A stretch of DNA of 22,634 bases from an uncultured Methanosarcinales archaeon (GTDB taxonomy: Archaea > Nanobdellota > Nanobdellia > Woesearchaeales > CAZYIM01): assembly GCA_964647565.1 (NCBI GenBank), contig CAZYIM010000039.1:1-22634 (forward strand), read 5' to 3'. Of the stretch, positions 1,370 to 17,533 are shown piece after piece. Numbering within the stretch: the first letter of the stretch is position 1; the number at the start of each line of letters is the position of its first letter. A program made the translations under genes and the position numbers. The notes under the pieces are model-generated. The model was not told where the DNA came from and searched no databases. It saw only the letters and a list, made by a program, of their open reading frames with translations.

Positions 1370-3253
1370 TCATTGTGTTCGTTCAACCATGAAATCAGCA
1401 AAGCCATTAAAGAAATCATACTCGTCTTTTGATAGGTTGGCCTTCAGGAGATGTTTCTTGGCTTCATCAATCTTATTGTTTGCTAGTTTATCAACATAAT
1501 TAATCGCACCAGAGGATTCCAATAGGTCGATTGCTTCATCAATCTCTTTATCAGTTGCATCACTCCTGCCAAGCACGTTGAGCAGTTTTTGCTTATCAGG
1601 CTCTTTAAGCCTTTCTAAGGCCCTAATGATTATTAGGGTCTTCTTGCCTTGTCTGATATCCGAGCCCTTCTGACGGCCTTTTTTGGCCTTAGAGCACAAA
1701 TCCATAAGATCGTCTTTCAACTGGAAAGCAAGTGCTGCATTCATTGAATATTGGTCTAAGCTCGTTAATTGTTGTTCAGAAGCACCTCCAAGAATCCCGC
1801 CTATCCTTATTGAAGTAGCAATCAGAGCAGAAGTCTTTTTCATTGCCATATCAATATAATACTGCTCATCTTCAGAAGATTTGAATTCGAGAAGGGTATC
1901 CATCAATTCCCCTTGGTTAACAACAGCATAGCACTTATGATACTCTAAAGCAGCCCTGTTAATAAGATTTTTATCTAATTTAGAATTTATCAAACAATCT
2001 GCACCATACGAATATAATATATTTCCAAGAACAATAGCATTGGATACACCAAATCTGGTTGACAGCTTAGAGAAAACAGGTCCGGAATATGTTCTATCTT
2101 TAAAAGAAGACAAGAACTCTTTTTTCTGCTGCTGGAAAATCGTATCTCGTCCTCGTCTCTTCTCATCTTCATCTATAATATCGTCATGGATCAGGCTGGA
2201 GTTATGAAGGAACTCAACAGATAACGCTTCCCTGATTATCTGGCCTTTACCACCAACACCCATATAGGCCATTATTAAAGAAATGGGTCTTAACTTTTTA
2301 CCACCATCCTGGCCAAAACTCTTCAATAGATTAAGATAAGGCTCAAAATCAGGGCTCTGAAGCATCTTTTCCCTAAATAAGTACTCTATTTCCTTATTGA
2401 GCACCCTTTGATAGCTCAACAATGTTCGAGTGAAACCAGATTGCTTGTCAGTCAATTTAGCCAATACTCTTTCAATGGTTTTTTCAGGCGTGGAAGCTCC
2501 TGCTGTTATGCCAACAATCTTGCCCATGAACCATTCATCTTTAAGCTGATCTGCTTTTTCAATCCACCGGGTCTCAACAATAGCTTCACAAAGCTCATAC
2601 AAGCGTTTTGTGTTTCCGCTTGTCTTGTCACCTATGACTATCATAAGATCGACAGTTTTAGCCAACTCCTGTGCGGCATTCTGCCTTTCAATAGTTGAGT
2701 TACAAATGGTATCATAAACATTCAATTCATTTACCTTTTTTCTAAGGATCTTCTTGATGATATCATAGTCTTCCAGAGACTGTGTAGTTTGTGAGACCAA
2801 CACAGCTTTTTCCATCTCTGGTAAGTCATCAGCATCTGTTTCACTTTTAATGATAATTGGATTTTCACATCTGCTGGCAATAGCCTTGATCTCTATATGT
2901 TCCTTATCACCAAAGATGATAACAGGATATTCCTGCTTGTCAAACTTTTTTACAATATCGTGAATCTTCTTAACAAACGGACAGGTTGTATCAACAACAT
3001 TCAATCCCTTTTTTTCTGCCGCTTTTATAGTAGAAAGAATATTTCCATGAGCATTGATGACCAATGTCCCCCTCTCAATCTCAGATATGCTTCTGACTGG
3101 GCTGATATCCTGTTCTTTAAGCTCATCAACCACTTCCTTATTATGGACAACATGACCTAATGTTTTAGCGCCCTTCTTACCTTTTGCAATATCCACTGCC
3201 CGCTTGACTCCAAAGCAAAATCCGTGGTTTTTAGCAACTTGCAGTTCTTTTAT
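1370..3253 (-). CDS. ispH: Fusion of IspH/LytB (HMBPP reductase) and trans-polyprenyl diphosphate synthase; start extended to ATA at 3253 (627 aa)
   Basis: IspH motifs: GFCFGVKRA (upstream of the track's GTG at 3196), VHN, AHG, DTTCPFV, EHIE, SQTT, DTICN, SGNT, GITAGASTP. Prenyltransferase motifs: GGKKLRP, LIHDDIID..RRG, GELMD, KT, FQLKDDLMD. One open frame across the junction near 2430-2455. Confidence 0.9.
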   Translation of the reverse strand: MKELQVAKNHGFCFGVKRAVDIAKGKKGAKTLGHVVHNKEVVDELKEQDISPVRSISEIERGTLVINAHGNILSTIKAAEKKGLNVVDTTCPFVKKIHDIVKKFDKQEYPVIIFGDKEHIEIKAIASRCENPIIIKSETDADDLPEMEKAVLVSQTTQSLEDYDIIKKILRKKVNELNVYDTICNSTIERQNAAQELAKTVDLMIVIGDKTSGNTKRLYELCEAIVETRWIEKADQLKDEWFMGKIVGITAGASTPEKTIERVLAKLTDKQSGFTRTLLSYQRVLNKEIEYLFREKMLQSPDFEPYLNLLKSFGQDGGKKLRPISLIMAYMGVGGKGQIIREALSVEFLHNSSLIHDDIIDEDEKRRGRDTIFQQQKKEFLSSFKDRTYSGPVFSKLSTRFGVSNAIVLGNILYSYGADCLINSKLDKNLINRAALEYHKCYAVVNQGELMDTLLEFKSSEDEQYYIDMAMKKTSALIATSIRIGGILGGASEQQLTSLDQYSMNAALAFQLKDDLMDLCSKAKKGRQKGSDIRQGKKTLIIIRALERLKEPDKQKLLNVLGRSDATDKEIDEAIDLLESSGAINYVDKLANNKIDEAKKHLLKANLSKDEYDFFNGFADFMVERTQ

Positions 3254-3891
3254 TTTATATCACCCGGATATGTAATCTTTATATTGGATCTTTCACCAGA
3301 TATCATCTTCACCTTAACACCCAGCACCTCTACTAAAGAGGAATCATCATCTGCTTTTATTTTTTTCTTCTTGGCCATTTTATGCGCTAGTCGGATAAGA
3401 TCAGCATCAAAGATCTGTGGCGTCTGGGCAATAAACACCTTGCGCCTGTCGATAGTCTTCATTGTTTTAGAGACGTGCTTGACTGTCTCTTCCACAGGCA
3501 AGGCCACAATCAATGCCTGTTTGCATTCGACAATGGATTTAGAGATTAGTTTTTGGCTTACAAAAGGCCTGTCAGCATCGTGAATAAGGATTTTATCAGC
3601 ATTTTTTACAGCATCAACACCTAAGGCGCTGGATTGCTGCCTGGACCTGCCTCCATACACAATCTTGGCTAGTTTGCTATATTTTCCACTGCATAAGGTT
3701 TTAATGCGGCGTAAGCTTTTTTTGGATGTTACCAGGATTATTTCATGAACATCAGGATTCGTTTCAAACTTATGAAGAACAATCTCAAGAACAGTCTTCC
3801 CAGCAAACTCTGCAAAAAGTTTATTCTTACCAAAACGCTTAGATTCTCCTGCTGCCAGAATTACGGCACAAATAATTTTTTTCTTGCTCAT
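3250..3891 (-). CDS. ispD: 2-C-methyl-D-erythritol 4-phosphate cytidylyltransferase (IspD/TarI family)
   Basis: VILAAGESKRF..NKLF, GGRSRQQSS, ILIHDADRPF, AQTPQIF, DDSSLVE, NIKITYPGD. It is adjacent to and coupled with ispH. Confidence 0.85.
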   Translation of the reverse strand: MSKKKIICAVILAAGESKRFGKNKLFAEFAGKTVLEIVLHKFETNPDVHEIILVTSKKSLRRIKTLCSGKYSKLAKIVYGGRSRQQSSALGVDAVKNADKILIHDADRPFVSQKLISKSIVECKQALIVALPVEETVKHVSKTMKTIDRRKVFIAQTPQIFDADLIRLAHKMAKKKKIKADDDSSLVEVLGVKVKMISGERSNIKITYPGDIK

Positions 3892-7355: not shown

Positions 7356-7754
7356 ATGGATAGAAAAAAGATCGTTGAAATGCAGCTGATGGAACAGCAG
7401 TTGAAGCAAATGCAAGGTAATATTGAGAACATTGATAATCAGATGAATGAACTAAGATCACTTTTAAGCAATCTTGAAGAAGTTTCAAAGATGAAAAAGG
7501 GCTCAGAGATCCTTTTCCCAGTGTCAAATGGCATATTTGCCAAGGCTGAAATCAAAGAGATCAAGAAATTAAAAGTAAGTGTCGGAAGTAATGTGGTTGT
7601 TAACAAGACTGTAGACAGCACAAAAGACATGATCAACGACCAGATCATGGAACTGATGAACTATCGCAATGAGAATCTCTTGAAATTTCAGGGCTTGATT
7701 GAGCAAATTCAAAACCTGCAGGTCGAGTTAGAAAAGGATGTAAAGACAAAATAA
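7356..7754 (+). CDS. pfdA: Prefoldin subunit alpha
   Basis: Coiled coil, then EILFPVSNGIFAKA...KVSVGSNVVVNKT, then coiled coil. Conserved position upstream of ftsY. Confidence 0.9.
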   Translation: MDRKKIVEMQLMEQQLKQMQGNIENIDNQMNELRSLLSNLEEVSKMKKGSEILFPVSNGIFAKAEIKEIKKLKVSVGSNVVVNKTVDSTKDMINDQIMELMNYRNENLLKFQGLIEQIQNLQVELEKDVKTK

Positions 7755-7755
7755 A

Positions 7756-10281
7756 ATGTTTGGATTTCTAAAAAAGAAGCTACAAGACGCGGTCTCAAAG
7801 TTTTCTAAAAATGTTGAAGATGAGGTTGAAGTAGAAGAGGTTACCAAGAAGGTAGACGAGACAAAAGCAGAGAAAAAGAAGGAAGAAAAGAAAAAGGATA
7901 AGCCTAAGAAAGAAGAAAAAAAGAAAGAGGAGAAACCTAAGCTTAAAAAAGAACCTGAAGAAAAAAAGGAAGAGAAACAAGAGAAACCTGAAAAAGAGCC
8001 AGAAGAAAAAAAATCATTCTTATCCAAGATCTTTGGCAAGAAAGAAGAAGACGCAGAAGAAGAAATACCAATTCCAAAAGAGAAGAAAAAAGAAGTAAAG
8101 CCTAAGGCCAAAAAAGAGGAAAAACCCAAGACACCTGAGCCAAAAGTTGAGAAAGCCGAAGAAAAGAAAGTTGAAGCTAAGAAAGAAGAGAAAAAAGAAC
8201 CTGAGAAGGTAAAAGAAGCAGTCAAGGAAGAACCTGAACCTGAAAAAAAAGAAAAGAAAAAAGAGACCGATGCTAAGAAGGAAGAAAAGAAAACAGAAGA
8301 AAAGGAGCCTGAACCTGTAAAAGAAGAAGCTGAAGAAAAGAAAGAGCCTCTAAAAGAAGAAAAAGAAGAGATCGAAGAAGTAGAGGAAGAGCCTGAGATT
8401 GAACCTGAAGAGGAACCCAAGCCAGAAGTTAAAGAAGAAATAGTGGAGCCAGAAGAATCAGAAGAAAAAATTAAAGGCGTCAAAATAACTTATTTTGTTC
8501 ACGGAACCACAACTGATAATGAAGAAGGCCTAGCCACGGGCCATGAACATGGAGAACTTTCTGAACTAGGCATAACACAAGCAAAAGAGCTTGCTAATCA
8601 AGTCGATGTTGAAAAGTTCGATGTCATGTTCACATCTGACCTGAAACGAGCTACTGATTCTGCAGATTTTGGATTCAAAGATAAACTCAAGATAATCAAA
8701 GACAAGCGACTTCGCGAAGTTGATTATGGAGAATTTACACTTAAGCCTTGCAAGGAATTCAAGCCGAATATGGCTGATTATGTTGACGAAAGATTCCCCT
8801 CTGGTGAAAGCTATAGGGATGTAGAAAAAAGAATTGCAGAATTTCTAAACGATATCTTGAAAAAATACCAGGGCAAGCATATCGCAATAATGGCACATCA
8901 CGCTCCACAACTCGCTATCGAGGTTTTGGTGGAAGGCAAAACCTGGGAACAAGCTATTGCAGATGATTGGCGACCTAAAAATGCATGGCAGCCAGGATGG
9001 GACTATTCAATGGAGGCAGAGGTAGACGTGCCTGAGATAGAGGATACTGCAGCAGAAGCTGCTGAAGTTCAGGAAGAGGCTCCTGAACAACAAGAAAAAA
9101 AATCATTCTTATCAAAGATATTCCACAGGAAAAAAGAGGAAGAAGTAATCGAAGAAAAAGAAGAGGTTGAGGAAGAGAAAGAGGCTGAGCCTGAACCAGA
9201 AGTCCCAGAGGAACTTGAAGAGATCAAGGAAGACATAAAAGACGTTGAAAAAGAAAAAGAAGTGATTGAAGAGGAAGAAAAGGTAGAAGAACCCAAAAAA
9301 GAGAAAAAAGAAGAGGTTGAAGAAGAGCCTGAAATTTCTGAAGAACCGATAAAAGAAGAAGAACCTGAAGAGGAACCTGCGGAAGAAGCTAAGCCCAAGA
9401 AAAAGGGATTATTTTCATTTGTCACCGAGCGAGTCACTAAGTTTAATATTTCTGAAGAGAAGTTTGAGGAGATGTTCTGGGATCTTGAAGTTGCATTACT
9501 GGAAAATAATGTTGCCGTTGAGGTCATAGAAAAGATCAAGGAAGATATGAAAGAAGAGCTGACCAGGGAAAAGATCTCAAGAAAGAAGGTCATGGAGGTC
9601 ATAATCAATAGGCTTGACCAATCTATTAAAGAACTCTTTGATGTTGACCAGATAGACCTGATGAAAGAGATCAAGAAGAAAAAGCCTTTTGTCATCTCTT
9701 TTATTGGAGTCAATGGATCTGGCAAGACCACATCTATGGCCAAGGTAGCCAAGAATCTTATGAATCAGGGTCTATCAGTCGTGTTTGCAGCAGCAGATAC
9801 GTTTAGGGCGGCTGCAATCGAACAATTGCAGGAACATGCGGACAAGCTTGGTGTAAAAATGATCCGTCATGACTACAAATCAGATCCTGCCGCAGTTGCT
9901 TTTGATGCAGTTGAGCATGCAAAAGCCAAGAACATAGATGTTGTCCTGGTTGACACTGCTGGAAGGCTTCATTCAAATGATAATCTGATGAATGAGCTCA
10001 AAAAACTTGTCAGGGTAAATAACCCTGATCTAAAGGTTTTTGTTGGGGAAAGTACTACTGGTAATGATTGTGTAGAACAAGCCAGATTATTTGATCAGGC
10101 TGTTGGTATAGATGCAGTAATACTCGCAAAAGTGGATGTTGATGATAAAGGCGGAGCTGCTATTTCTATTTCTTTTGTGACAAAGAAACCGATCATCTTT
10201 ATTGGTACTGGTCAGAATTATGAGGATCTTGAGCCTTTTGATCCACAGATTGTTCTGAAATCACTTGGCCTTGAAGCCTAG
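7756..10281 (+). CDS. ftsY: SRP receptor FtsY with long K/E-rich linkers and an internal histidine-phosphatase domain (841 aa)
   Basis: C-terminal NG GTPase: GVNGSGKTTS, DTFRAAAIEQL, DPAAVAFDA, DTAGR, AKVD..KGG, GTGQ.YEDL. Internal domain: YFVHGTT.DN, LSELGITQA, TSDLKRA, RLREVDYG, GES, AHH. Confidence 0.92.
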   Translation: MFGFLKKKLQDAVSKFSKNVEDEVEVEEVTKKVDETKAEKKKEEKKKDKPKKEEKKKEEKPKLKKEPEEKKEEKQEKPEKEPEEKKSFLSKIFGKKEEDAEEEIPIPKEKKKEVKPKAKKEEKPKTPEPKVEKAEEKKVEAKKEEKKEPEKVKEAVKEEPEPEKKEKKKETDAKKEEKKTEEKEPEPVKEEAEEKKEPLKEEKEEIEEVEEEPEIEPEEEPKPEVKEEIVEPEESEEKIKGVKITYFVHGTTTDNEEGLATGHEHGELSELGITQAKELANQVDVEKFDVMFTSDLKRATDSADFGFKDKLKIIKDKRLREVDYGEFTLKPCKEFKPNMADYVDERFPSGESYRDVEKRIAEFLNDILKKYQGKHIAIMAHHAPQLAIEVLVEGKTWEQAIADDWRPKNAWQPGWDYSMEAEVDVPEIEDTAAEAAEVQEEAPEQQEKKSFLSKIFHRKKEEEVIEEKEEVEEEKEAEPEPEVPEELEEIKEDIKDVEKEKEVIEEEEKVEEPKKEKKEEVEEEPEISEEPIKEEEPEEEPAEEAKPKKKGLFSFVTERVTKFNISEEKFEEMFWDLEVALLENNVAVEVIEKIKEDMKEELTREKISRKKVMEVIINRLDQSIKELFDVDQIDLMKEIKKKKPFVISFIGVNGSGKTTSMAKVAKNLMNQGLSVVFAAADTFRAAAIEQLQEHADKLGVKMIRHDYKSDPAAVAFDAVEHAKAKNIDVVLVDTAGRLHSNDNLMNELKKLVRVNNPDLKVFVGESTTGNDCVEQARLFDQAVGIDAVILAKVDVDDKGGAAISISFVTKKPIIFIGTGQNYEDLEPFDPQIVLKSLGLEA
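8003..8033 (+). repeat. Direct repeat copy 1 inside ftsY (encodes EKKSFLSKIF)
   Basis: AAGAAAAAAAATCATTCTTATCcAAGATcTT matches 9092-9122 at 29/31 nt, 1089 nt apart and in frame. Confidence 0.85.
8479..9012 (+). other. Histidine phosphatase (phosphoglycerate-mutase-like) domain within FtsY
   Basis: About 178 aa of globular sequence, VKITYFVHG...WQPGWDYSM, carrying the family motifs and embedded between two low-complexity linkers. Confidence 0.85.
9092..9122 (+). repeat. Direct repeat copy 2 inside ftsY (encodes EKKSFLSKIF)
   Basis: AAGAAAAAAAATCATTCTTATCaAAGATaTT. A second shared 17-mer, GAACCTGAAGAGGAACC, occurs at 8401-8417 and 9361-9377. Confidence 0.85.
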
Positions 10282-10717
10282 GCTTGATTATCTTTTTTAA
10301 GAATCCGATCTTATCTCTTGCTTTAAACAATAGTGGATTTGTTTCTCTTGTCAAGGTCTTTTTAGTTGCAATATCCAATCCATACGCAATAAGTGGACCT
10401 GCTGTCCATGACAAGAAATCTCCAGGATCATAGGTTCCGCTGCAAATGCCAAAATATTCAATCAGTTCGTGACCATAACCAACTGCAAGCCAGAGCAATG
10501 CATTTGCTTCTGAACTAAGATGGTCTCCAAATCCTATTCTGACCAATTGATAACCTACTCCTGTTGTTGAACCAGGTCCAAAATAACCATCTCCAAAGTG
10601 GCCAAAGGCAGTATTAGAGGTCATAGAAATAGCTCCAGTTGTTCCAAACATGGTCATGTAGCCCAGATTCTTGATCCTGTCAGGAACGCTTCTTACCTTA
10701 TCAATTAGTTTAGACAT
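10199..10717 (-). CDS. Hypothetical membrane protein, possibly VanZ/DUF2238-like
   Basis: Hydrophobic segments with polar motifs HFGD, HELIEY and GTYDPGD. It has its own upstream TATA box. The 3' end overlaps ftsY by 83 nt. Confidence 0.6.
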   Translation of the reverse strand: MSKLIDKVRSVPDRIKNLGYMTMFGTTGAISMTSNTAFGHFGDGYFGPGSTTGVGYQLVRIGFGDHLSSEANALLWLAVGYGHELIEYFGICSGTYDPGDFLSWTAGPLIAYGLDIATKKTLTRETNPLLFKARDKIGFLKKIIKPRLQGQVISEQSVDQKAQDPHNSDQYQ

Positions 10718-10797: not shown

Positions 10798-12060
10798 TTA
10801 ATCCAGATTCTTGCCATTCACCCAAAGATCAATGCCAGTCCTTGGAATATCCTGGTAAAGTACACCATAATTCCCATGCAGGCAGTCATTGACAATCTCA
10901 ATAGAGTGTTCATAATTATTTGCCCAATGCTTCCTAAAGGCTTCGACAGCTTTGTCAGGATTCATTTTCAGGGCCTGCGCATTATGTTTAATCCTGTTAA
11001 TTGTTGGAGTGTACATCTTGATCTCTAAGAAATGTAGTTTTGGCAAAAAGCCATCAATCTGGTAATCCATTTTTTCGACAAACTCTCTTACAGTCGCAGG
11101 ATCTGGATTGATAATATATGGATAGATATCAACACCGCTATTGACTATATCCTTGAAAGCAAATATCTGATCTTCAAGCGAAAGCTTGGCCTGGACCAGA
11201 CTCTGCACACCAAAATCATCAGTGCCCTTAAAGCATGAAAGGATTTTGGGTTTGTATTCTGCAATCCTCTCCCAGACATGAGTGGGATATTGACCTGTGA
11301 CTTCTAATTCTCTGACCAAGGCCCCTGATGTTAGGTTGGTATCTAACTGAAGTCCCACTTTTATGCCATGTTCTTGTCTAATTAGTTCGGCTAGTTCTAG
11401 ATTAAAATCCATCCAAAGTGTTGGTTCTCCACCACTAGACCTTATATGTCTCAAATCACGACCTGCCTCACGAAATTTATCCATGTGATATTCAAAACTG
11501 GAAAGAACTGAATCTGCTGAAACAAAACTGCCAAACTCCAACTGGCCAGAATTGCTTTTATTGTCTACAAAACAAAACAAGCAACCGCCATATTCATCAC
11601 CTAAATGGAAATTGCATCCAACGCCCTGGAATATGAAGTTGAAATTAAAGTCATTCATCATTTGAATTGGATATCCTTGCTGGACCCTGAACCAATCAAT
11701 TATGTCAAAAGATTTGTTAAGGGAATCTCTGACCTGTTTAGGATTGTCTGTATCAATAGGAGGTATGGTTTTTATCACAGCAATCTCCTTATCCATGTCC
11801 TTGCTGTTGACCTTGGCTCTGTAGACATTATCACCAGTCACAATATCCTCCATGATGGGCATGGTAATGTCTCCCTTCTGGTCGGTCTTGTCAAAATCTA
11901 CAACACATAGTTCCCGTTTATTATTTTCAGGATTTGTCCGTACCAGTTTTTCACGAAGATGCTTGCCCCACTTCACAGGATCAACACCCATAGCAGCGTT
12001 TTGCCTGCTCTCCAGAATTGATTTAACTAACCTTCTCTCTTTATCACTCATAGATTCCAT
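10798..12060 (-). CDS. Radical SAM protein with an atypical CX10CX2C motif; probable start ATG 12060 (420 aa)
   Basis: FQGVGCNFHLGDEYGGCLFCFVD, IRSSGGEPTL, LQLDTNL. SD GAGGTG at 12068-12073 lies 7 nt before ATG 12060. Confidence 0.75.
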   Translation of the reverse strand: MESMSDKERRLVKSILESRQNAAMGVDPVKWGKHLREKLVRTNPENNKRELCVVDFDKTDQKGDITMPIMEDIVTGDNVYRAKVNSKDMDKEIAVIKTIPPIDTDNPKQVRDSLNKSFDIIDWFRVQQGYPIQMMNDFNFNFIFQGVGCNFHLGDEYGGCLFCFVDNKSNSGQLEFGSFVSADSVLSSFEYHMDKFREAGRDLRHIRSSGGEPTLWMDFNLELAELIRQEHGIKVGLQLDTNLTSGALVRELEVTGQYPTHVWERIAEYKPKILSCFKGTDDFGVQSLVQAKLSLEDQIFAFKDIVNSGVDIYPYIINPDPATVREFVEKMDYQIDGFLPKLHFLEIKMYTPTINRIKHNAQALKMNPDKAVEAFRKHWANNYEHSIEIVNDCLHGNYGVLYQDIPRTGIDLWVNGKNLD

Positions 12061-12151
12061 AACTAACCACCTCACTGATTTACTCACTTAAGTTACAAAA
12101 AATATTTAAATTAGTATGATGCGATATATTAATGACGAAAAAAGGGGTATA

Positions 12152-15100
12152 ATGAAAAAACTATTTATCAGTCTAGTTATGATTATCTTATTAGCTAATT
12201 TTTCACACGCAAGCCCTGTCATTTCTCACATCACAGAAGGCATCACAGGATCAATAATCAAACTGGATGTCGAGGATCTTGGCCAGGGCAGGGAAGTCAT
12301 AGTCGGAACATCCACTGGAGTTTTCATCTTTGATGGTAAAGGAGTGCTGATCAATCACTTCCCCACCACCTATCCGATTACAGATCTATTATATGTTAAT
12401 GACTTGACTGGGGATGGTGATAGGGATATTGTTGTTTCAACCACAGACCAGGACTTTCCTAATGTTCAGATGTATAATAGTCGAACAGGAGAGCTCATCT
12501 GGACTTTCAAGCCAACAATACCAGCATATGACCTTGACTTGATGTGGATAGACAAAGAGACCAAGACCTGGGATCTTGAAATACTTCCTGACATTAACAG
12601 CGACAATCTTGATGAGATATTGGTGGCTTCAGGAAATAAGGTTTATCTGCTCGATGGTAAGACAGGCGTAGCAAAATGGGCATTCAATGCCACAAATGAT
12701 GTGTGGAACGTAAAAAGTATTGGAGATAAGATACTGGTAGGCTCGCAAGATGGAATATTATATGCATTAGATGTTCAAGGTTCTTTGATGTGGCAAATAG
12801 AGCTGATAGCTCCTTTTGAGGTAATAGACCTCTCAACCAATAACCCTGTTGGTAATGTAAAACGATCTGTCTGGGACATAATATTGACTCAAGAACAGAT
12901 AATCACTGTAAGCGGGGAGAACGGATATATCTATCAAGTAAACATTGACAATGGAAACATCATTCAAGAAAAACAGATAATAGAATTTGATGATAATCTA
13001 TTGTATGCCTACTATGGAACTGATAAGAATCGCTTATTGCCTTCGGGACCAAACACAGATAACTTCTTTAACTTAAGATTAAAGAAGATTCCCGATCTTA
13101 ACCAGGATGGTATTGATGAAATAATTGCAACCACATTTATGGGTACATCATCCTCACGAAACCAAGACCAGAAAGGCGGATACAGCTTAAAGAACAAAAT
13201 TATCCATTTGCTCGATGGAGACTCTGTTGAAGAGATATGGCACACCAAAGAGATAGATATAACAAAAACAAAACAGTTCAGCACATATATTGACAATGAC
13301 AAGAAGATTGTTATACCTGAAGGTAAGAGAGGTAAGACAGAATTGATCAAGACAGTCAATCTTGAAAAAGAGATTGTTAATATCAATTTCAATACCACAG
13401 CAGTATCAGGTGGATCAGGGAATTTCTATTTTATTGAAAACTATGATGATTATCATCTTATTATGGCTTCTGACCAAGGCGATCTGACCCTCATAGATAC
13501 AACAGGCAAGATACAATGGGTATATCCAAGATATCAGGAACTAGAGATCAATAGTGTAGACCTCAACTCTGATGGAACAGAAGACATTTTTGTGCGTTCT
13601 GTTGAAAGAAAAGAGCGAGAAAAAAAGACAGAAGAGGGCAGCACACGAATGATGTATATGCTTGATGGAACCAGCAACAATATGCTTTGGCTATATAAGA
13701 TGGGTTTTAACGAATATTACCTGACTGGCGGATTGAATAATATCAGGATAATAGATGATGTCAACAATGATAATTATAGGGACATAATGGCATATGTACA
13801 AAGAAAAGGTGATTGGGATCGTGGAGATTCTAAAGGCCTATATACAAGAATAATAGTTTTTGATGGAAAGTCAGGAAATGAGATCTGGAAGAAACCAGTT
13901 GTTGAGAACACATATTATGGCGTTTATGATATCCTATATAGGAACATATCACTGATCCCGACCATGTTTGATTATGATGAAGATACAATAACACAACTTG
14001 AAATTGAGCGAGAGTTTGCCCAGAGAAAACTTCAGAATCCTGACACTTTGGATTATGACAAATGGCAAAGATATCTAGAGGAAAGAGAGCAAGCGATAGA
14101 ACGTCAATATAGGATGAGGGATCAGATAGACCAGTTAATGGGAGAATTACCTCAAAGGAAAGAAGAATTCAAGGTAAATAGGAGGATCATATCAATTGAG
14201 GAAATAGAGGACCAGAATTCTGATGGTGTAAAGGATTTGATAGTGAGCTGCTGGTACGATGTCTATGTCATAAGCAGCAAGGATGGAAAATTATTATGGT
14301 TAAAAACACGGGATGCATATAAGCATAAGGATCCTTTTGCCTCAGGAGAAGGCAACAAATCCCTTGAATGGAGTTTCTTAAAAGATGCAGACAGGTCAAA
14401 AATAAAGGTAGTTGAAGATATCAACGAAGATGGAATCCAGGATCTTCTTGTCTTCACGCATCGCAGAATCCTTTTGGCACAGAGCGGGATCAATTATACC
14501 CTTAAATGGATGTGGAAACCAAGTTCTGGAGACTATGACCAAGAAAACCTGATGATGATTGAAGATGTTAACGGTGATGGTATCAAGGATATATTTATCG
14601 ATGTTTGGAGTGAGGATGGCCCATCAACATACAAGATCCTAAACAGCAGGAATGGCAAAGAAATCATGCAGATAAACAGGGATGGCACTATGATGGATTG
14701 GAATGTAGCTGACCTTGACGGCGATAATCATAAAGATTCTTTGATATTTAGAAAATGGAGTGATTCTGGACCAATATTAGAGGTAAAAAGCGGCGATACT
14801 GGCCAAACTATATACACCTATGATGGTATTGATGAGACATATATGCTTGAAAGCAGGCATAAATTTGCACATATCATGCCCGCAGGACCAATAGATGATT
14901 TCAACGAGGATGGAGTAGATGATCTGGTCATCATAAAAAGCAGGTTGTGGCAAAAAGGCATAGAGATAATAATAATTGATGTCAAGAACAATGAACAATT
15001 GCAAAAAATAGAATATGATGTTGCTGAAACTGAAAATGAAGACTATAAAAGATACCAGCCAGCAGTATGGGTCAACACTATCAATGATCTTTCTGGCGAT

Positions 15101-15664
15101 GGTAGAAAAGAGATTGCTATTGTTGGAGTTTTTACAATTGAAAATGAACAAGAAGAAGCAAAAGTTATAATTTTTGATCTTAATAAGAAGAGAGTGCTTA
15201 GGGAATTCAAGGTTAAGGCTGACAAGGTTTTTAGTGTTGGTAACAACAAGAACATCTATATAACAACTGTAAATGGTGATGTCTACCTGATTGACAGCAG
15301 CTGGTCCAATCCAATTCTTGAACCCTTGAATGATGCAGTTGTTCAGGATGAATTTGAATTGAAATGGAACCAGGAAAAAAACACTCTTAATACCATATTC
15401 TTCAATAACCAAAAGGTCAAGGAAGTTGATGGTGATAGTCATGTCTTGAATATTAAGGGCGGCAAACACGAGATAGCCCTACAGACCAAGGATAGGCTTG
15501 GAAACACAGTATTTGACTATATTGAGATAAAGGTGAAAAGAAGTACTGTCGCAACCACCTTGATTAACATAATCATTCTCTTCGCTATTATTGCATTCAT
15601 AATATATAATATAAATAAGCATAGAAAAAGAAAGGGTCTAAGTCCAATATGGAAGAAGAAATAA
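12152..15664 (+). CDS. Large extracellular FG-GAP/PQQ-like beta-propeller protein with signal peptide, Ig-like domain and C-terminal membrane anchor; probable start ATG 12152
   Basis: Signal peptide MKKLFISLVMIILLANFSHA after AGGGGT. About 11 DxNxDGxxD-type motifs and repeated DGKTG..W motifs. C-terminal hydrophobic helix followed by KHRKRK. Confidence 0.85.
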   Translation: MKKLFISLVMIILLANFSHASPVISHITEGITGSIIKLDVEDLGQGREVIVGTSTGVFIFDGKGVLINHFPTTYPITDLLYVNDLTGDGDRDIVVSTTDQDFPNVQMYNSRTGELIWTFKPTIPAYDLDLMWIDKETKTWDLEILPDINSDNLDEILVASGNKVYLLDGKTGVAKWAFNATNDVWNVKSIGDKILVGSQDGILYALDVQGSLMWQIELIAPFEVIDLSTNNPVGNVKRSVWDIILTQEQIITVSGENGYIYQVNIDNGNIIQEKQIIEFDDNLLYAYYGTDKNRLLPSGPNTDNFFNLRLKKIPDLNQDGIDEIIATTFMGTSSSRNQDQKGGYSLKNKIIHLLDGDSVEEIWHTKEIDITKTKQFSTYIDNDKKIVIPEGKRGKTELIKTVNLEKEIVNINFNTTAVSGGSGNFYFIENYDDYHLIMASDQGDLTLIDTTGKIQWVYPRYQELEINSVDLNSDGTEDIFVRSVERKEREKKTEEGSTRMMYMLDGTSNNMLWLYKMGFNEYYLTGGLNNIRIIDDVNNDNYRDIMAYVQRKGDWDRGDSKGLYTRIIVFDGKSGNEIWKKPVVENTYYGVYDILYRNISLIPTMFDYDEDTITQLEIEREFAQRKLQNPDTLDYDKWQRYLEEREQAIERQYRMRDQIDQLMGELPQRKEEFKVNRRIISIEEIEDQNSDGVKDLIVSCWYDVYVISSKDGKLLWLKTRDAYKHKDPFASGEGNKSLEWSFLKDADRSKIKVVEDINEDGIQDLLVFTHRRILLAQSGINYTLKWMWKPSSGDYDQENLMMIEDVNGDGIKDIFIDVWSEDGPSTYKILNSRNGKEIMQINRDGTMMDWNVADLDGDNHKDSLIFRKWSDSGPILEVKSGDTGQTIYTYDGIDETYMLESRHKFAHIMPAGPIDDFNEDGVDDLVIIKSRLWQKGIEIIIIDVKNNEQLQKIEYDVAETENEDYKRYQPAVWVNTINDLSGDGRKEIAIVGVFTIENEQEEAKVIIFDLNKKRVLREFKVKADKVFSVGNNKNIYITTVNGDVYLIDSSWSNPILEPLNDAVVQDEFELKWNQEKNTLNTIFFNNQKVKEVDGDSHVLNIKGGKHEIALQTKDRLGNTVFDYIEIKVKRSTVATTLINIIILFAIIAFIIYNINKHRKRKGLSPIWKKK

Positions 15665-16602
15665 TGATCAAGACAGAGAACCTAAAGAAATCATTTGGTA
15701 GCGGAGCTTCTAGATTCAATGCAGTCGATAACATAAATATTGAGATAAGGAAAGGCCAGATCCATGGTTTTTTAGGACCTAATGGCGCAGGAAAATCAAC
15801 AACCATCAAGATGCTGGTGGGAGCGATTAAACCCACTTCAGGAAAAGCGTATATCAAGGGTAAAGCAGTTGGATCTGTTGATGCAAGATGGGTGATGGGT
15901 TACTCACCAGAAAGGCCATCGTTCTACGAAAACATGACTGCAATGGAATACCTTGAATACATGGGCATGCTTTGCGGGCTGGATTCTCAAGAAGCCCATA
16001 AACGTGCAGAAGAGCTCATGGACTGGATGGAACTTAAAGATGCCAAACACAGGGCAATTAAGGGATTTAGCGCAGGTATGAAACAGAAATTAGGTCTTGC
16101 TCAAGCCCTGATCCATGAACCCCAACTGCTTATTCTGGATGAACCAACAGCAAATCTTGATCCGATTGGAAGAGCAACGTTAATTGAAAAGATCAAGGAA
16201 CTGGCAGTCAAGCAAAATATCACTCTTTTTGTCAGCAGCCACATATTGCCTGAGATCGAAAAGATGGCTGACTATGTAACAATCATTGATCATGGTAAGA
16301 TAATTCTTGAAAGTGATGTCAAATCCCTAAAAAAACATTTCGAGGGCAATCATTTTATAATTTCCTGTTCAGACAATAAAAAACTAAAAAAGATTCTCCA
16401 AGCCAGGAATTATATCACTAAGATATGGGATGATGAGGAACAACGGATCAATATAATTGTTAAGGATGAGAAAAAGATTAAGGACGAGCTGCCCATACTT
16501 TTAGCTAAAAACAAATTAGCTTTAGAGCATTTTGGCCAGCTTTCATTGTCACTTGAAAAGATATTCATGGAGGTTATCGAGGAAGAAGATGGAAAAGCCT
16601 AG
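15649..16602 (+). CDS. ABC-2 type transporter ATP-binding protein (alternative start 15664 as a TAATG overlap)
   Basis: Walker A GPNGAGKST, signature FSAGMKQ, Walker B LILDEP, SSH switch. Confidence 0.95.
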   Translation: MEEEIMIKTENLKKSFGSGASRFNAVDNINIEIRKGQIHGFLGPNGAGKSTTIKMLVGAIKPTSGKAYIKGKAVGSVDARWVMGYSPERPSFYENMTAMEYLEYMGMLCGLDSQEAHKRAEELMDWMELKDAKHRAIKGFSAGMKQKLGLAQALIHEPQLLILDEPTANLDPIGRATLIEKIKELAVKQNITLFVSSHILPEIEKMADYVTIIDHGKIILESDVKSLKKHFEGNHFIISCSDNKKLKKILQARNYITKIWDDEEQRINIIVKDEKKIKDELPILLAKNKLALEHFGQLSLSLEKIFMEVIEEEDGKA

Positions 16603-17533
16603 ACTATTTGTAATTATTAAGAAGACTTTGATAGACTTATTCACTATCAAGACTACAGGTCTTTACCTCGGCTTAATGCTGCTGCTCCCTATCCTGTTTG
16701 CCATGATAACAAAATCTGAAAATCTCTTAGGTTTAAATAATATGACTTTAGAGATGCAGGCGGCGTTCATAACAGGCCTGTTTATAGTGATGGCATTCCT
16801 TTGGACTGCAGGATTCCCTTTGGTCTTGTTCACTTTCATCAAATGTGCGGGATTTATCTCTAAAGAAGATGCAGACGGCACCCTCCTGATACTGGTAAGC
16901 AAGCCAATCAAGCGATCAAATATACTACTGGGAAAATTCTTAGCATTCCTGATTTACACATTAACACTGCAGTTAATAGTCCTATTGTTAATACCCTACA
17001 TCTGGACGCAAGTCTATGGCCTGGACCTCTTTGTTTTCAGCAGCCTGCTAAAGGTAGTATTGCCTATTTTCATTTATTCAACTTTTGTGTTGCTTATATT
17101 TGGCTCAATAGCATCCGCCCTTTCGACTGTGACCAAGAACTCTGTGAAGATAATCACTATCCTTGTAGTTTTGACCATTTTCTTGTTTTTTGGATTCTCA
17201 ATGGTCAGGAATTTCACAGTCTCAACAGGATTGTATGAACGATATAATATCTATGCTTTTGACATAAATTATCATCTTGGCAACACCTATGATTTTTTCA
17301 TCGAACAAAGTAATATCAAGATAATGCCATTTCTCCAGATACCTTTAGGAGGCTTTTCAGGAATATATGATGTAAACCAGCAGTTCATAGATTTTGATCA
17401 GGGCATAATGGCACCATCTCTGCAAAAATACAGCTATTTTTCTCCTATTTATTCTATCATCCTATGGCTGGCACTGGCATCAGGACTGGTATTATCTGGC
17501 ATATTTTTATTAAAAAAGAAAGAGATATTTTGA
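16589..17533 (+). CDS. ABC-2 type transporter permease; probable start ATG 16589 (MEKPRL)
   Basis: About 6 TM helices and ISKEDADGTLLILVSKPIKRSNILLGKF. It overlaps the ATPase stop. Confidence 0.88.
   Translation: MEKPRLFVIIKKTLIDLFTIKTTGLYLGLMLLLPILFAMITKSENLLGLNNMTLEMQAAFITGLFIVMAFLWTAGFPLVLFTFIKCAGFISKEDADGTLLILVSKPIKRSNILLGKFLAFLIYTLTLQLIVLLLIPYIWTQVYGLDLFVFSSLLKVVLPIFIYSTFVLLIFGSIASALSTVTKNSVKIITILVVLTIFLFFGFSMVRNFTVSTGLYERYNIYAFDINYHLGNTYDFFIEQSNIKIMPFLQIPLGGFSGIYDVNQQFIDFDQGIMAPSLQKYSYFSPIYSIILWLALASGLVLSGIFLLKKKEIF

Follow-up and report, generated by a model that had tools for sequence, protein, structure and literature searches.

FtsY, the receptor of the signal recognition particle (SRP), is among life's most conserved proteins, with an A region that tends to be regarded as no more than a plain tether. 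We describe an archaeal ftsY gene in which this tether holds a complete small histidine phosphatase, encoded in frame. The gene lies in a stretch of 22,634 nucleotides (nt), the whole of which we call the window (positions 1 to 22,634 of contig CAZYIM010000039.1, assembly GCA_964647565.1), from an organism deposited as an uncultured Methanosarcinales archaeon and placed by GTDB in the order Woesearchaeales of the phylum Nanobdellota. It is the organism's single, functional SRP receptor, and the fusion is a real, recurrent and apparently unpublished variant of FtsY with a conserved accessory enzyme. On the best reading of the evidence laid out below, the insert would be an accessory, probably active phosphatase packaged in a permissive linker, and would be no part of the SRP cycle.

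A complete phosphatase inside a complete FtsY

The gene is a single uninterrupted frame of 841 codons on the plus strand (7756..10281), with zero stops. Pfam places three domains in its product: His_Phos_1 (PF00300) at amino acids (aa) 249-385 (E 1.1e-26; 94.1 bits against a cut-off of 21.7), SRP54_N (PF02881) at aa 555-617 (E 2.5e-8; 34.4 against 22.4) and the SRP54 GTPase (PF00448) at aa 644-836 (E 1.2e-71; 240.9 against 22.7). The NCBIfam model for ftsY, TIGR00064, gives 313.1 bits against a cut-off of 260.7, and the ffh and SRP54 models remain below their own cut-offs. The SRP GTPases share a set of motifs, namely the P-loop, DTFRAAA, DTAGR, xKxD and GxGQ/E, and the whole set is present here (GVNGSGKTT at 651, DTFRAAA at 681, DTAGR at 733, AKVD near 791 and GTGQ at 817), in variants that are also seen among 90 relatives. 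The host genome (G000; 2.68 Mb in 86 contigs, 86.9% complete) has the fused gene as its sole FtsY-type match, a second match on contig C30 being SRP54-like and 31% identical; therefore, the fused gene must supply the SRP receptor. It is also the only carrier in that genome of the phosphatase subfamily described below, which we call "xHG."

The original prediction, made from the DNA letters alone, was of a one-frame FtsY with a histidine phosphatase domain in its linker, and the single 841-aa open reading frame (ORF), the Pfam matches and the AlphaFold2 models bear it out. The span then proposed for the phosphatase, 8479-9012, was close; a profile of relatives extends it to 8476-9021, that is, aa 241-422. 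The linker upstream of the domain (aa 20-240) consists of 31% Lys, 37% Glu and 10% Pro, and the one downstream (aa 421-545) of 43% Glu and 14% Lys. The features of the gene, all on the plus strand, are as follows.

7756..10281, +, whole ftsY ORF with the nested phosphatase (ORF call, Pfam, NCBIfam)
7756..7815, +, N-terminal amphipathic helix MFGFLKKKL..., aa 1-20, putatively membrane binding (AlphaFold2, conservation)
7816..8475, +, linker 1, Lys/Glu/Pro-rich, predicted to be disordered (composition, AlphaFold2 confidence, low-complexity direct repeats)
7996..8056, +, first copy of a 61-nt repeat, encoding EKKSFLSKIF, an amphipathic motif resembling membrane-targeting sequences (repeat family D6)
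8476..9021, +, branch-1 histidine phosphatase domain of the xHG subfamily, aa 241-422 (Pfam, relatives' profile, AlphaFold2, alignments)
8500-8502, +, codon of the catalytic His249 (alignment to solved relatives)
9022..9396, +, linker 2, acidic, predicted to be disordered (composition, AlphaFold2 confidence)
9085..9145, +, second 61-nt repeat copy, again encoding EKKSFLSKIF, just downstream of the phosphatase domain (repeat search)
9397..9423, +, KKKGLFSFV motif at the A/N junction (fused-FtsY consensus, AlphaFold2)
9418..9606, +, FtsY N domain (SRP54_N helical bundle), aa 555-617 (Pfam)
9685..10263, +, FtsY G domain (SRP54-type GTPase), aa 644-836 (Pfam, GTPase motifs)

Modeled alone with AlphaFold2 from a 59-sequence alignment of free-standing relatives, the phosphatase domain reaches a predicted local distance difference test score (pLDDT) of 95.8 and a predicted template modeling (TM) score of 0.90. 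The full-length model, built from a 60-sequence alignment of fused FtsY proteins, gives a pLDDT of 94-98 for the phosphatase, 77-98 for the N and G domains (NG) and below 50 for both linkers (most of aa 36-233 in linker 1 and aa 439-557 in linker 2). An N-terminal helix begins at aa 3, with a pLDDT of 77-80 for aa 1-20, and another helix begins at aa 552. Because both linkers score below 50, we take the phosphatase and the NG GTPase as independent units, and the protein is predicted to resemble beads on a string, with linkers and amphipathic motifs bearing two folded modules. A Foldseek search with the phosphatase returned 285 PDB chains at an E value of 0.001 or lower, and all among the matches listed belong to the histidine phosphatase or phosphoglycerate mutase family; the best solved matches are PspA (4IJ5/4IJ6), CobC (6E4B, 6NRU), PhoE (1H2E) and the riboflavin-pathway protein 9MMH, with TM scores of about 0.65-0.71 and 22-28% identity.

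Since the flanks of the insert are repetitive Lys/Glu-coding DNA, a phosphatase gene might conceivably have been joined into ftsY across low-complexity repeats during assembly, but the chance of such a chimera is vanishingly small. A separate contig of 3867 nt encodes the same protein less one residue in linker 1 (840/841 aa), 59-93% of the 31-mers sampled from the stretch are present in four runs of two marine or seawater studies, and the same in-frame architecture recurs in about 98 database clusters from many sources and in seven other genomes of the order. The run search found the stretch in eight DNA runs from two studies and in no RNA run.

Active site and subfamily

The conserved pocket residues of the insert are V248, H249, N255, R298 (in SDLKR), E321 (in LRE), and H381 and H382 (in AHH). 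His249, Asn255, Arg298, Glu321 and His381 align with catalytic residues of PspA and PhoE, both in the alignment to 4ij5 and in the profile search, and His249 falls on His9 of PspA. According to PMC2737285, the RHG motif is among the features conserved in the superfamily of histidine phosphatases, and its His is the phosphorylated catalytic residue. In our protein the Arg of this motif is absent and Val248 takes its place. The residues named in the original prediction (VHG without the RHG Arg, the SDLKR Arg, the LRE Glu and the AH His) are therefore confirmed by their match to solved relatives.

To compare these positions, we used 215 domains drawn from 267 proteins, each covering at least 150 of the 182 profile positions with a score above 80 (one duplicate, P0002, was dropped). 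Position 248 is Val in 150 domains, Thr in 25, Ala in 11, Ile in 6, Pro in 5 and Arg in 5. His249 is kept in 209, Asn255 in 211, Arg298 in 214, Glu321 in 214 and His381 in 211. At position 382, the commonest residues are Gln (71), Lys (64) and Arg (42), followed by Ser (8), His (7) and Gly (6). Among 14 canonical RHG-type phosphatases of relatives, by comparison, 12 have Arg at position 248 and 11 have Gly at position 382. The prevailing pairs are Val with Gln (69), Lys (59) or Arg (15) in the subfamily and Arg with Gly (11) in the canonical proteins. Where the Arg is lost, the second His thus tends to be followed by a polar or basic residue, a co-variation that looks like a remodeled pocket. 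The alignment argues that Val in place of the RHG Arg is a family trait and not decay, and since the catalytic residues are near-invariant, the insert does not appear to be a decaying passenger. Across 88 fused FtsY proteins, the insert has a median identity to ours of 59.2%, and NG one of 59.1%.

The subfamily has its own C-terminal signature, DWR...WQPGW-Y, which no solved chain covers, the best profile matches extending no further than position 158 of 182. The domain scores below every NCBIfam equivalog cut-off (best scores: cobC, 81.7 against 162.9; PspA, 69.5 against 350; archaeal dPGM, 50.7 against 225), and a search of the ESM Atlas gave only generic His_Phos_1 clusters. Two groups of candidates were rejected as further members. 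The His_Phos_1 paralogues of the host genome are distant, two of the three loci scoring 18-26 bits against the subfamily profile and L003 being of the RHG type. The phosphatases of about 200 aa found in insert-free relatives (28-39% identity) were considered as free xHG copies, and 14 of the 15 fetched turned out to be canonical RHG-type enzymes. One of these is at locus L050 of genome G025 (285-2077), where a canonical RHG-type phosphatase of about 188 aa lies directly downstream of a 410-aa ORF, some 1.3 kb from ftsY. The N-terminal sequence of that ORF resembles what we take to be enolase, and the phosphatase, which has no relation to the insert subfamily, is likely to be a glycolytic mutase.

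Fused and free-standing forms

A word-indexed cluster search restricted to proteins of 462-1472 aa returned 179 clusters. By BLAST label, the 267 proteins comprise 98 FtsY, 17 glycyl-tRNA synthetases (GlyRS), 14 proteins like valyl-tRNA synthetase (ValRS), one ribosomal protein L22, 106 proteins of at most 215 aa and 31 others. The search for joint His_Phos_1 and SRP54 architectures that had been suggested along with the original prediction thus yields about 98 database clusters of FtsY from the Diapherotrites-Parvarchaeota-Aenigmarchaeota-Nanoarchaeota-Nanohaloarchaeota (DPANN) archaea, named simply "FtsY." Full-text searches, with subscription-only papers outside their scope, found no published description of an FtsY-histidine phosphatase fusion or of the domain nested in proteins of DPANN archaea or bacteria of the candidate phyla radiation (CPR). 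In the parts of the texts available, PMC11237513 mentions only a Sat-histidine phosphatase fusion, and PMC11606122 merely lists ftsY among the genes present. The earlier remark that no enzymatic insert is known in an FtsY A region therefore agrees with the literature found, but not with the databases, where about 100 such FtsY clusters lie.

Free-standing copies are far more numerous. Clusters of 30-461 aa number 5413 at an E value of 1e-30 or lower; the best 120 of them are almost all 180-187 aa long, with PF00300 alone, and 60-68% identical to the insert. These free-standing copies are as similar to our insert as are the inserts of other FtsY proteins. HMMER, run exhaustively against 1.84 billion representatives, gave 61 clusters (at 50% identity) at an E value of 1e-30 or lower and 959 at 1e-10 or lower.

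Pfam scans of 40 proteins revealed how the domain sits in its other hosts. Class I synthetases hold it after a WCISRQ...WY hairpin, GlyRS has it nested behind an N-terminal module of about 55 aa, and an L22 and a thermosome have it nested as well. End-to-end fusion partners are HD, NUDIX, nucleotidyltransferase (NTP_transf_2), dCTP-deaminase-like and GNAT domains. In the thermosome (Cpn60_TCP1) fragment, P0177, the phosphatase starts near aa 279-297, and in the L22 protein, P0093, it lies upstream of the L22 fold. The GlyRS module (aa 1-55 in, e.g., P0036, P0083 and P0084) is conserved, with a KKKI-GK-YYYL-type motif, and no Pfam family covers it in the two proteins scanned, P0036 and P0061. 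Serine-hydrolase (PF06821/PF12146) or NUDIX (PF00293) domains share the phosphatase-bearing linkers or loops of some FtsY, GlyRS and ValRS proteins (P0037, P0050, P0092 and P0099 of FtsY, P0061 of GlyRS and P0109 of ValRS; P0040, P0043 and P0067 of FtsY); several small hydrolases therefore share these sites. Three class I synthetases (P0003, P0031 and P0247) carry two tandem histidine phosphatase domains, the second copies being divergent; both copies of P0247 are of the canonical RHG type.

We sampled 30 relatives of the same order, one from each family. FtsY is present in all 30 (NG 51-65% identical), and the insert in only one. In 301 genomes of the order, the subfamily is found in 20 at an E value of 1e-30 or lower, one copy each, of which 8 lie in FtsY, as confirmed by NG motifs in the same ORF, and 12 are free-standing (one of these in the unpublished genome G182). 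In a phylum sample of 401 genomes, 37 have the subfamily, again with one copy each, fused or free. Classed by ORF length alone, these copies lie in frames of 447-911 aa (15, including a fused copy in the unpublished genome G422), 318 aa (1) and 178-213 aa (21). The gene for the xHG phosphatase is accessory in ultra-small archaea and bacteria: roughly one genome in ten has it, as a single copy that usually encodes a free-standing protein of 181 aa. The free-standing copies show no conserved neighborhood: 11 loci (one from G182) have 11 different neighborhoods, in which one copy adjoins cysS and one adjoins secY.

Gain and loss of the insert

The clearest case of presence and absence comes from two genomes of the same genus, G006 and G211, whose FtsY proteins are 94% identical in NG. 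The FtsY of G006 has 508 aa and lacks the insert, and that of G211 has 687 aa and carries it. Their A regions differ by one block, to either side of which the DNA is about 90% identical; the block is ordinary linker of about 190 nt in G006 versus about 600 nt with the phosphatase in G211. No copy of the subfamily was found elsewhere in G006, which is 96% complete, at an E value of 1e-30 or lower. G138, from the same genus, lacks the insert but has one free copy, which is only 52% identical to the G211 insert, yet 66% identical to a free copy from another family. Near-identical ftsY genes thus gain or lose the cassette.

On an NG tree of 51 FtsY proteins, the presence of the insert requires 10 changes, against a mean of 12.6 after shuffling, with 30 of 500 shuffles as low; the sample (21 loci and 30 randomly drawn database FtsY) was partly chosen by trait and so shows scatter, not rates. 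Domain trees mix the hosts, and the domain of the G211 protein (P0128) sits in a starred clade apart from that of ours in the FastTree tree. Changes of the FtsY label on these trees, with approximately unbiased (AU) tests of a single FtsY clade, were as follows.

FastTree, 215 rows: 15 label changes, 6 forced by starred branches, no AU test
IQ-TREE, 69 rows (a random subsample by label, six long-branch rows excluded): 5 label changes, 2 forced by starred branches, AU p = 0.215
IQ-TREE, 97 rows (including 45 of the 118 closest free-standing proteins): 9 label changes, 3 forced by starred branches, AU p = 0.073

With domain trees that mix the hosts and AU tests that do not reject one FtsY clade, we consider repeated capture of the domain by FtsY, or exchange of cassettes, likely though unproven; alternatively, a single old fusion may have been lost many times.

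Amphipathic motifs and the flanking repeat

The protein has four Lys-flanked motifs of Phe, Leu and Ile: MFGFLKKKL at the N terminus, EKKSFLSKIF twice in the A region and KKKGLFSFV at the A/N junction, where a membrane-targeting helix is known from Escherichia coli FtsY. We take them to be of the type of the amphipathic membrane-targeting sequences of MinD and FtsY (KKGF[FL]K-[RK]-[IL]-F). In 60 fused FtsY proteins, M1, F2, L5, K6, K8 and L9 are invariant or nearly so, and the A/N junction has the consensus EKKGFFxK. A KK-[GS]-F-[FL]-K-K-[IL]-F motif follows directly after the phosphatase in most of the close fused FtsY proteins displayed. The insert-free FtsY of G006 likewise has four such motifs.

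The two EKKSFLSKIF motifs are encoded by the direct repeat at 7996-8056 and 9085-9145, whose 61-nt copies are 79% identical and flank the insert. The repeat was considered as a target-site duplication and rejected, since the KK-x-F-[FL]-x-K-[IL]-F motif that it encodes recurs in A regions with and without the insert; it appears instead to be a feature of the A region. In this host, the motifs would probably hold the enzyme near the membrane. As a side observation, most of the ftsY A region at locus L056 (G267) is made up of a 16-aa unit (ESEVESLKSEVKKEAK-like) in about six tandem copies, which shows how freely ftsY linkers expand.

What the insert may do

We lean toward an account in which FtsY works as usual and the insert is a His249-dependent phosphomonoesterase, probably with a small-molecule substrate, the fusion providing co-expression and placement in a permissive linker. 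As we infer from the retained residues, the xHG domain would act through a phospho-His249 intermediate in a remodeled phosphate pocket; as a guess, its substrate is a small phosphorylated metabolite or a nucleotide in salvage. The phosphatase would be co-produced with FtsY, an abundant essential protein, and in this host would be kept near the membrane by the A region, as a cassette readily gained, lost or swapped in the permissive linker. Fusion would then be a way to express and place the enzyme rather than a new step in the SRP GTPase cycle. A passenger domain tolerated in the linker was one of the options raised in the original prediction, and it fits best: the subfamily is mostly a free-standing gene, it has nonmembrane hosts, and it comes and goes between near-identical ftsY genes.

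Several points weigh against this account. The Arg that defines the RHG pocket is missing, only 5 of 215 subfamily domains having it; therefore, phosphatase activity is not assured, and a profile search of solved chains found no solved structure of the subfamily. In the pair G059/G167, the one reasonably close pair with DNA, the insert is 67% identical in amino acids versus 82% for NG, and the ratio of nonsynonymous to synonymous rates (dN/dS; Nei-Gojobori) is 0.31 for the insert, 0.07 for NG and 0.33 for the linkers, with dS of 0.87-2.07 and partly saturated. The insert is thus under constraint, though more loosely so than the GTPase. By the AU tests, one origin for all FtsY-borne copies is not rejected. 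Lastly, nearly all large hosts (FtsY, aminoacyl-tRNA synthetases, L22 and the thermosome) serve protein synthesis or biogenesis, and this list may point to functional coupling, not neutral packaging.

Were the phosphatase coupled to protein synthesis or targeting, its target would be something produced, bound or required by the host proteins, for example a by-product nucleotide, an RNA end bearing a phosphate or a translation factor in phosphorylated form, and it would be fused to work beside them. Besides the host list, such coupling would suit the small fusion partners that handle nucleotides (HD, NUDIX, NTP_transf_2 and dCTP-deaminase-like) and the free copies beside cysS and secY. Yet the hosts are unrelated and without a common substrate, comprising a GTPase receptor, class I and class II synthetases, a ribosomal protein and a chaperonin; most members are free-standing, without a shared neighborhood; about 90% of the sampled phylum genomes lack the subfamily; and close relatives have FtsY without the insert. 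On balance we regard coupling, the main rival account, as unlikely. Another explanation, which we find improbable, is that the fusion serves to place the enzyme at the membrane or the Sec translocon, where its substrate would be the head group of a lipid or a phosphoprotein close to the membrane. Of the 130 labeled fusions, 98 are with FtsY, which far outnumbers the other large hosts; amphipathic KK-x-F-[FL]-x-K-[IL]-F motifs bracket the domain in it, and serine-hydrolase and NUDIX domains occupy the same A region in some FtsY proteins. However, the motifs belong to the A region regardless of the insert, as the four in G006 attest, and AlphaFold2 predicts no confident helices for them, the internal ones having a pLDDT below 50. 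Cytosolic GlyRS and ValRS-like hosts, moreover, carry domains 52-60% identical to ours, and most copies are free-standing and without these motifs. The tethering to the membrane or translocon that the original prediction suggested may thus describe where the enzyme sits in this protein, but not the general reason for having it.

The insert might also be a catalytically dead module that binds a ligand or serves a structural role while retaining the histidine phosphatase fold. A binder family that lost its phosphatase catalytic residues reportedly belongs to branch 2. That phosphatase-fold proteins have turned into binders after such losses is described in PMC10728186, and the RHG Arg is lost throughout our subfamily. 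Both His residues, Asn, the second Arg and Glu are nevertheless kept in 209-214 of 215 domains, and loss of the Arg is paired with the gain of Gln, Lys or Arg directly after His381, so that the pocket looks remodeled rather than abandoned; we hold a dead module to be very improbable. The packaged, probably active phosphatase that we favor leads to a broader idea, which at present is doubtful: small housekeeping or salvage enzymes (the xHG phosphatase, the serine hydrolase and NUDIX) may be in-frame cassettes that move between disordered linkers and surface loops of essential proteins (FtsY, GlyRS, ValRS or isoleucyl-tRNA synthetase, L22 and a thermosome) in DPANN archaea and CPR bacteria.

Comparison with known systems

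With FtsY and SR-alpha as known from E. coli and from archaea, our protein shares the N and G domains, including the full set of nucleotide-binding motifs, an A region that is variable, charged and disordered and has amphipathic motifs, and the archaeal pairing of prefoldin and ftsY genes. It differs in that its A region holds a complete folded enzyme and spans about 550 aa, against about 150-230 aa in the insert-free relatives displayed. The MinD and FtsY targeting motifs have four counterparts in our protein (N terminus, two in the A region and A/N junction), the internal ones modeled by AlphaFold2 with low confidence.

The small phosphatases PhoE/YhfR (1EBB, 1H2E), PspA (4IJ5), CobC (6NRU, 6E4B) and HFP (9MMH) have the same fold as the insert, profile E values of 1e-25 to 1e-29, and the catalytic His, Asn, second Arg, Glu and second His. 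They are 22-28% identical to it and differ in having RHG where ours has VHG, in the Gly after the second His, replaced in the xHG subfamily by Gln, Lys, Arg or His, and in not covering the DWR...WQPGW-Y signature. A parallel in architecture is the xHG domain nested in class I synthetases of CPR bacteria (isoleucyl-tRNA synthetase and ValRS), which is about 48-58% identical to our insert and likewise in frame in an essential host; it too has free-standing counterparts, and other enzyme domains occupy these sites as well. There the site is a structured surface hairpin of a cytosolic enzyme, whereas here it is a disordered linker of a membrane-associated GTPase. The mycobacterial RNase H/acid phosphatase (NF005567) also joins a CobC-like phosphatase, here matched at an E value of 4e-14, to a housekeeping enzyme. 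It is, however, an end-to-end two-domain fusion, not a nested one, and our protein scores 52.7 against its cut-off of 326. The mycobacterial enzyme has the canonical RHG motif.

Genomic context and other features of the window

Upstream of ftsY, Pfam identifies prs (ribose-phosphate pyrophosphokinase) and, directly adjoining, a prefoldin subunit gene.

7356..7754, +, prefoldin subunit gene, directly upstream of ftsY (Pfam Prefoldin, E 4.4e-18)

An ORF of 121-147 aa occupies the same position at five loci of relatives (L019, L020, L021, L027 and L032), so the prefoldin-ftsY order appears to be an archaeal gene pairing that these loci share. Genes for eIF-6 and Rpb4/RpoF also lie nearby and, together with the prefoldin-ftsY order, make this an archaeal gene context. 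The closest database proteins are labeled "Candidatus Woesearchaeota / Nanoarchaeota archaeon." At 2.68 Mb, the host genome exceeds all 30 sampled relatives of the order (0.6-2.1 Mb, rounded).

On the other side lies a possible gene, a 172-aa ORF without a Pfam match (10199-10717, minus strand) that is convergent with ftsY and shares the last 83 nt of the latter. Beyond it come a 429-aa ORF (10798-12087, minus), whose sole Pfam match, Radical_SAM, scores 28.4 bits against a cut-off of 29.5, and a 1182-aa protein of PQQ/FG-GAP beta-propeller repeats (12116-15664, plus), followed by the ATPase and permease of an ABC-2 type transporter (15649-17533, plus). Toward the start of the window, LytB/IspH (aa 7-247) and a polyprenyl synthetase (aa 290-557) are joined in one 607-aa protein (1370-3196, minus), next to which an IspD cytidylyltransferase is encoded (3250-3891, minus). 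These are genes of the methylerythritol phosphate pathway type in an archaeal context; the mevalonate route is expected in archaea.

Implications

New in this analysis are the co-variation of Val248 with position 382, the occurrence of the subfamily as one copy per genome, fused or free, the presence/absence pair within one genus, and the scatter of the insert over the NG tree. The tether of FtsY carries a conserved enzyme in about 100 lineages, and the same enzyme is nested in other essential proteins of ultra-small archaea and bacteria. With thousands of members and an active site that looks remodeled, the xHG subfamily is a well-defined biochemical target. Should the phosphatase prove coupled to its hosts, there would be an unrecognized phosphate-removal step tied to protein synthesis. 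Should the cassette idea hold, reduced genomes would have a manner of their own to package and exchange genes: nesting in indispensable genes would be a separate means by which ultra-small genomes retain, express and trade accessory enzymes, reflecting either genome streamlining or selfish hitchhiking.

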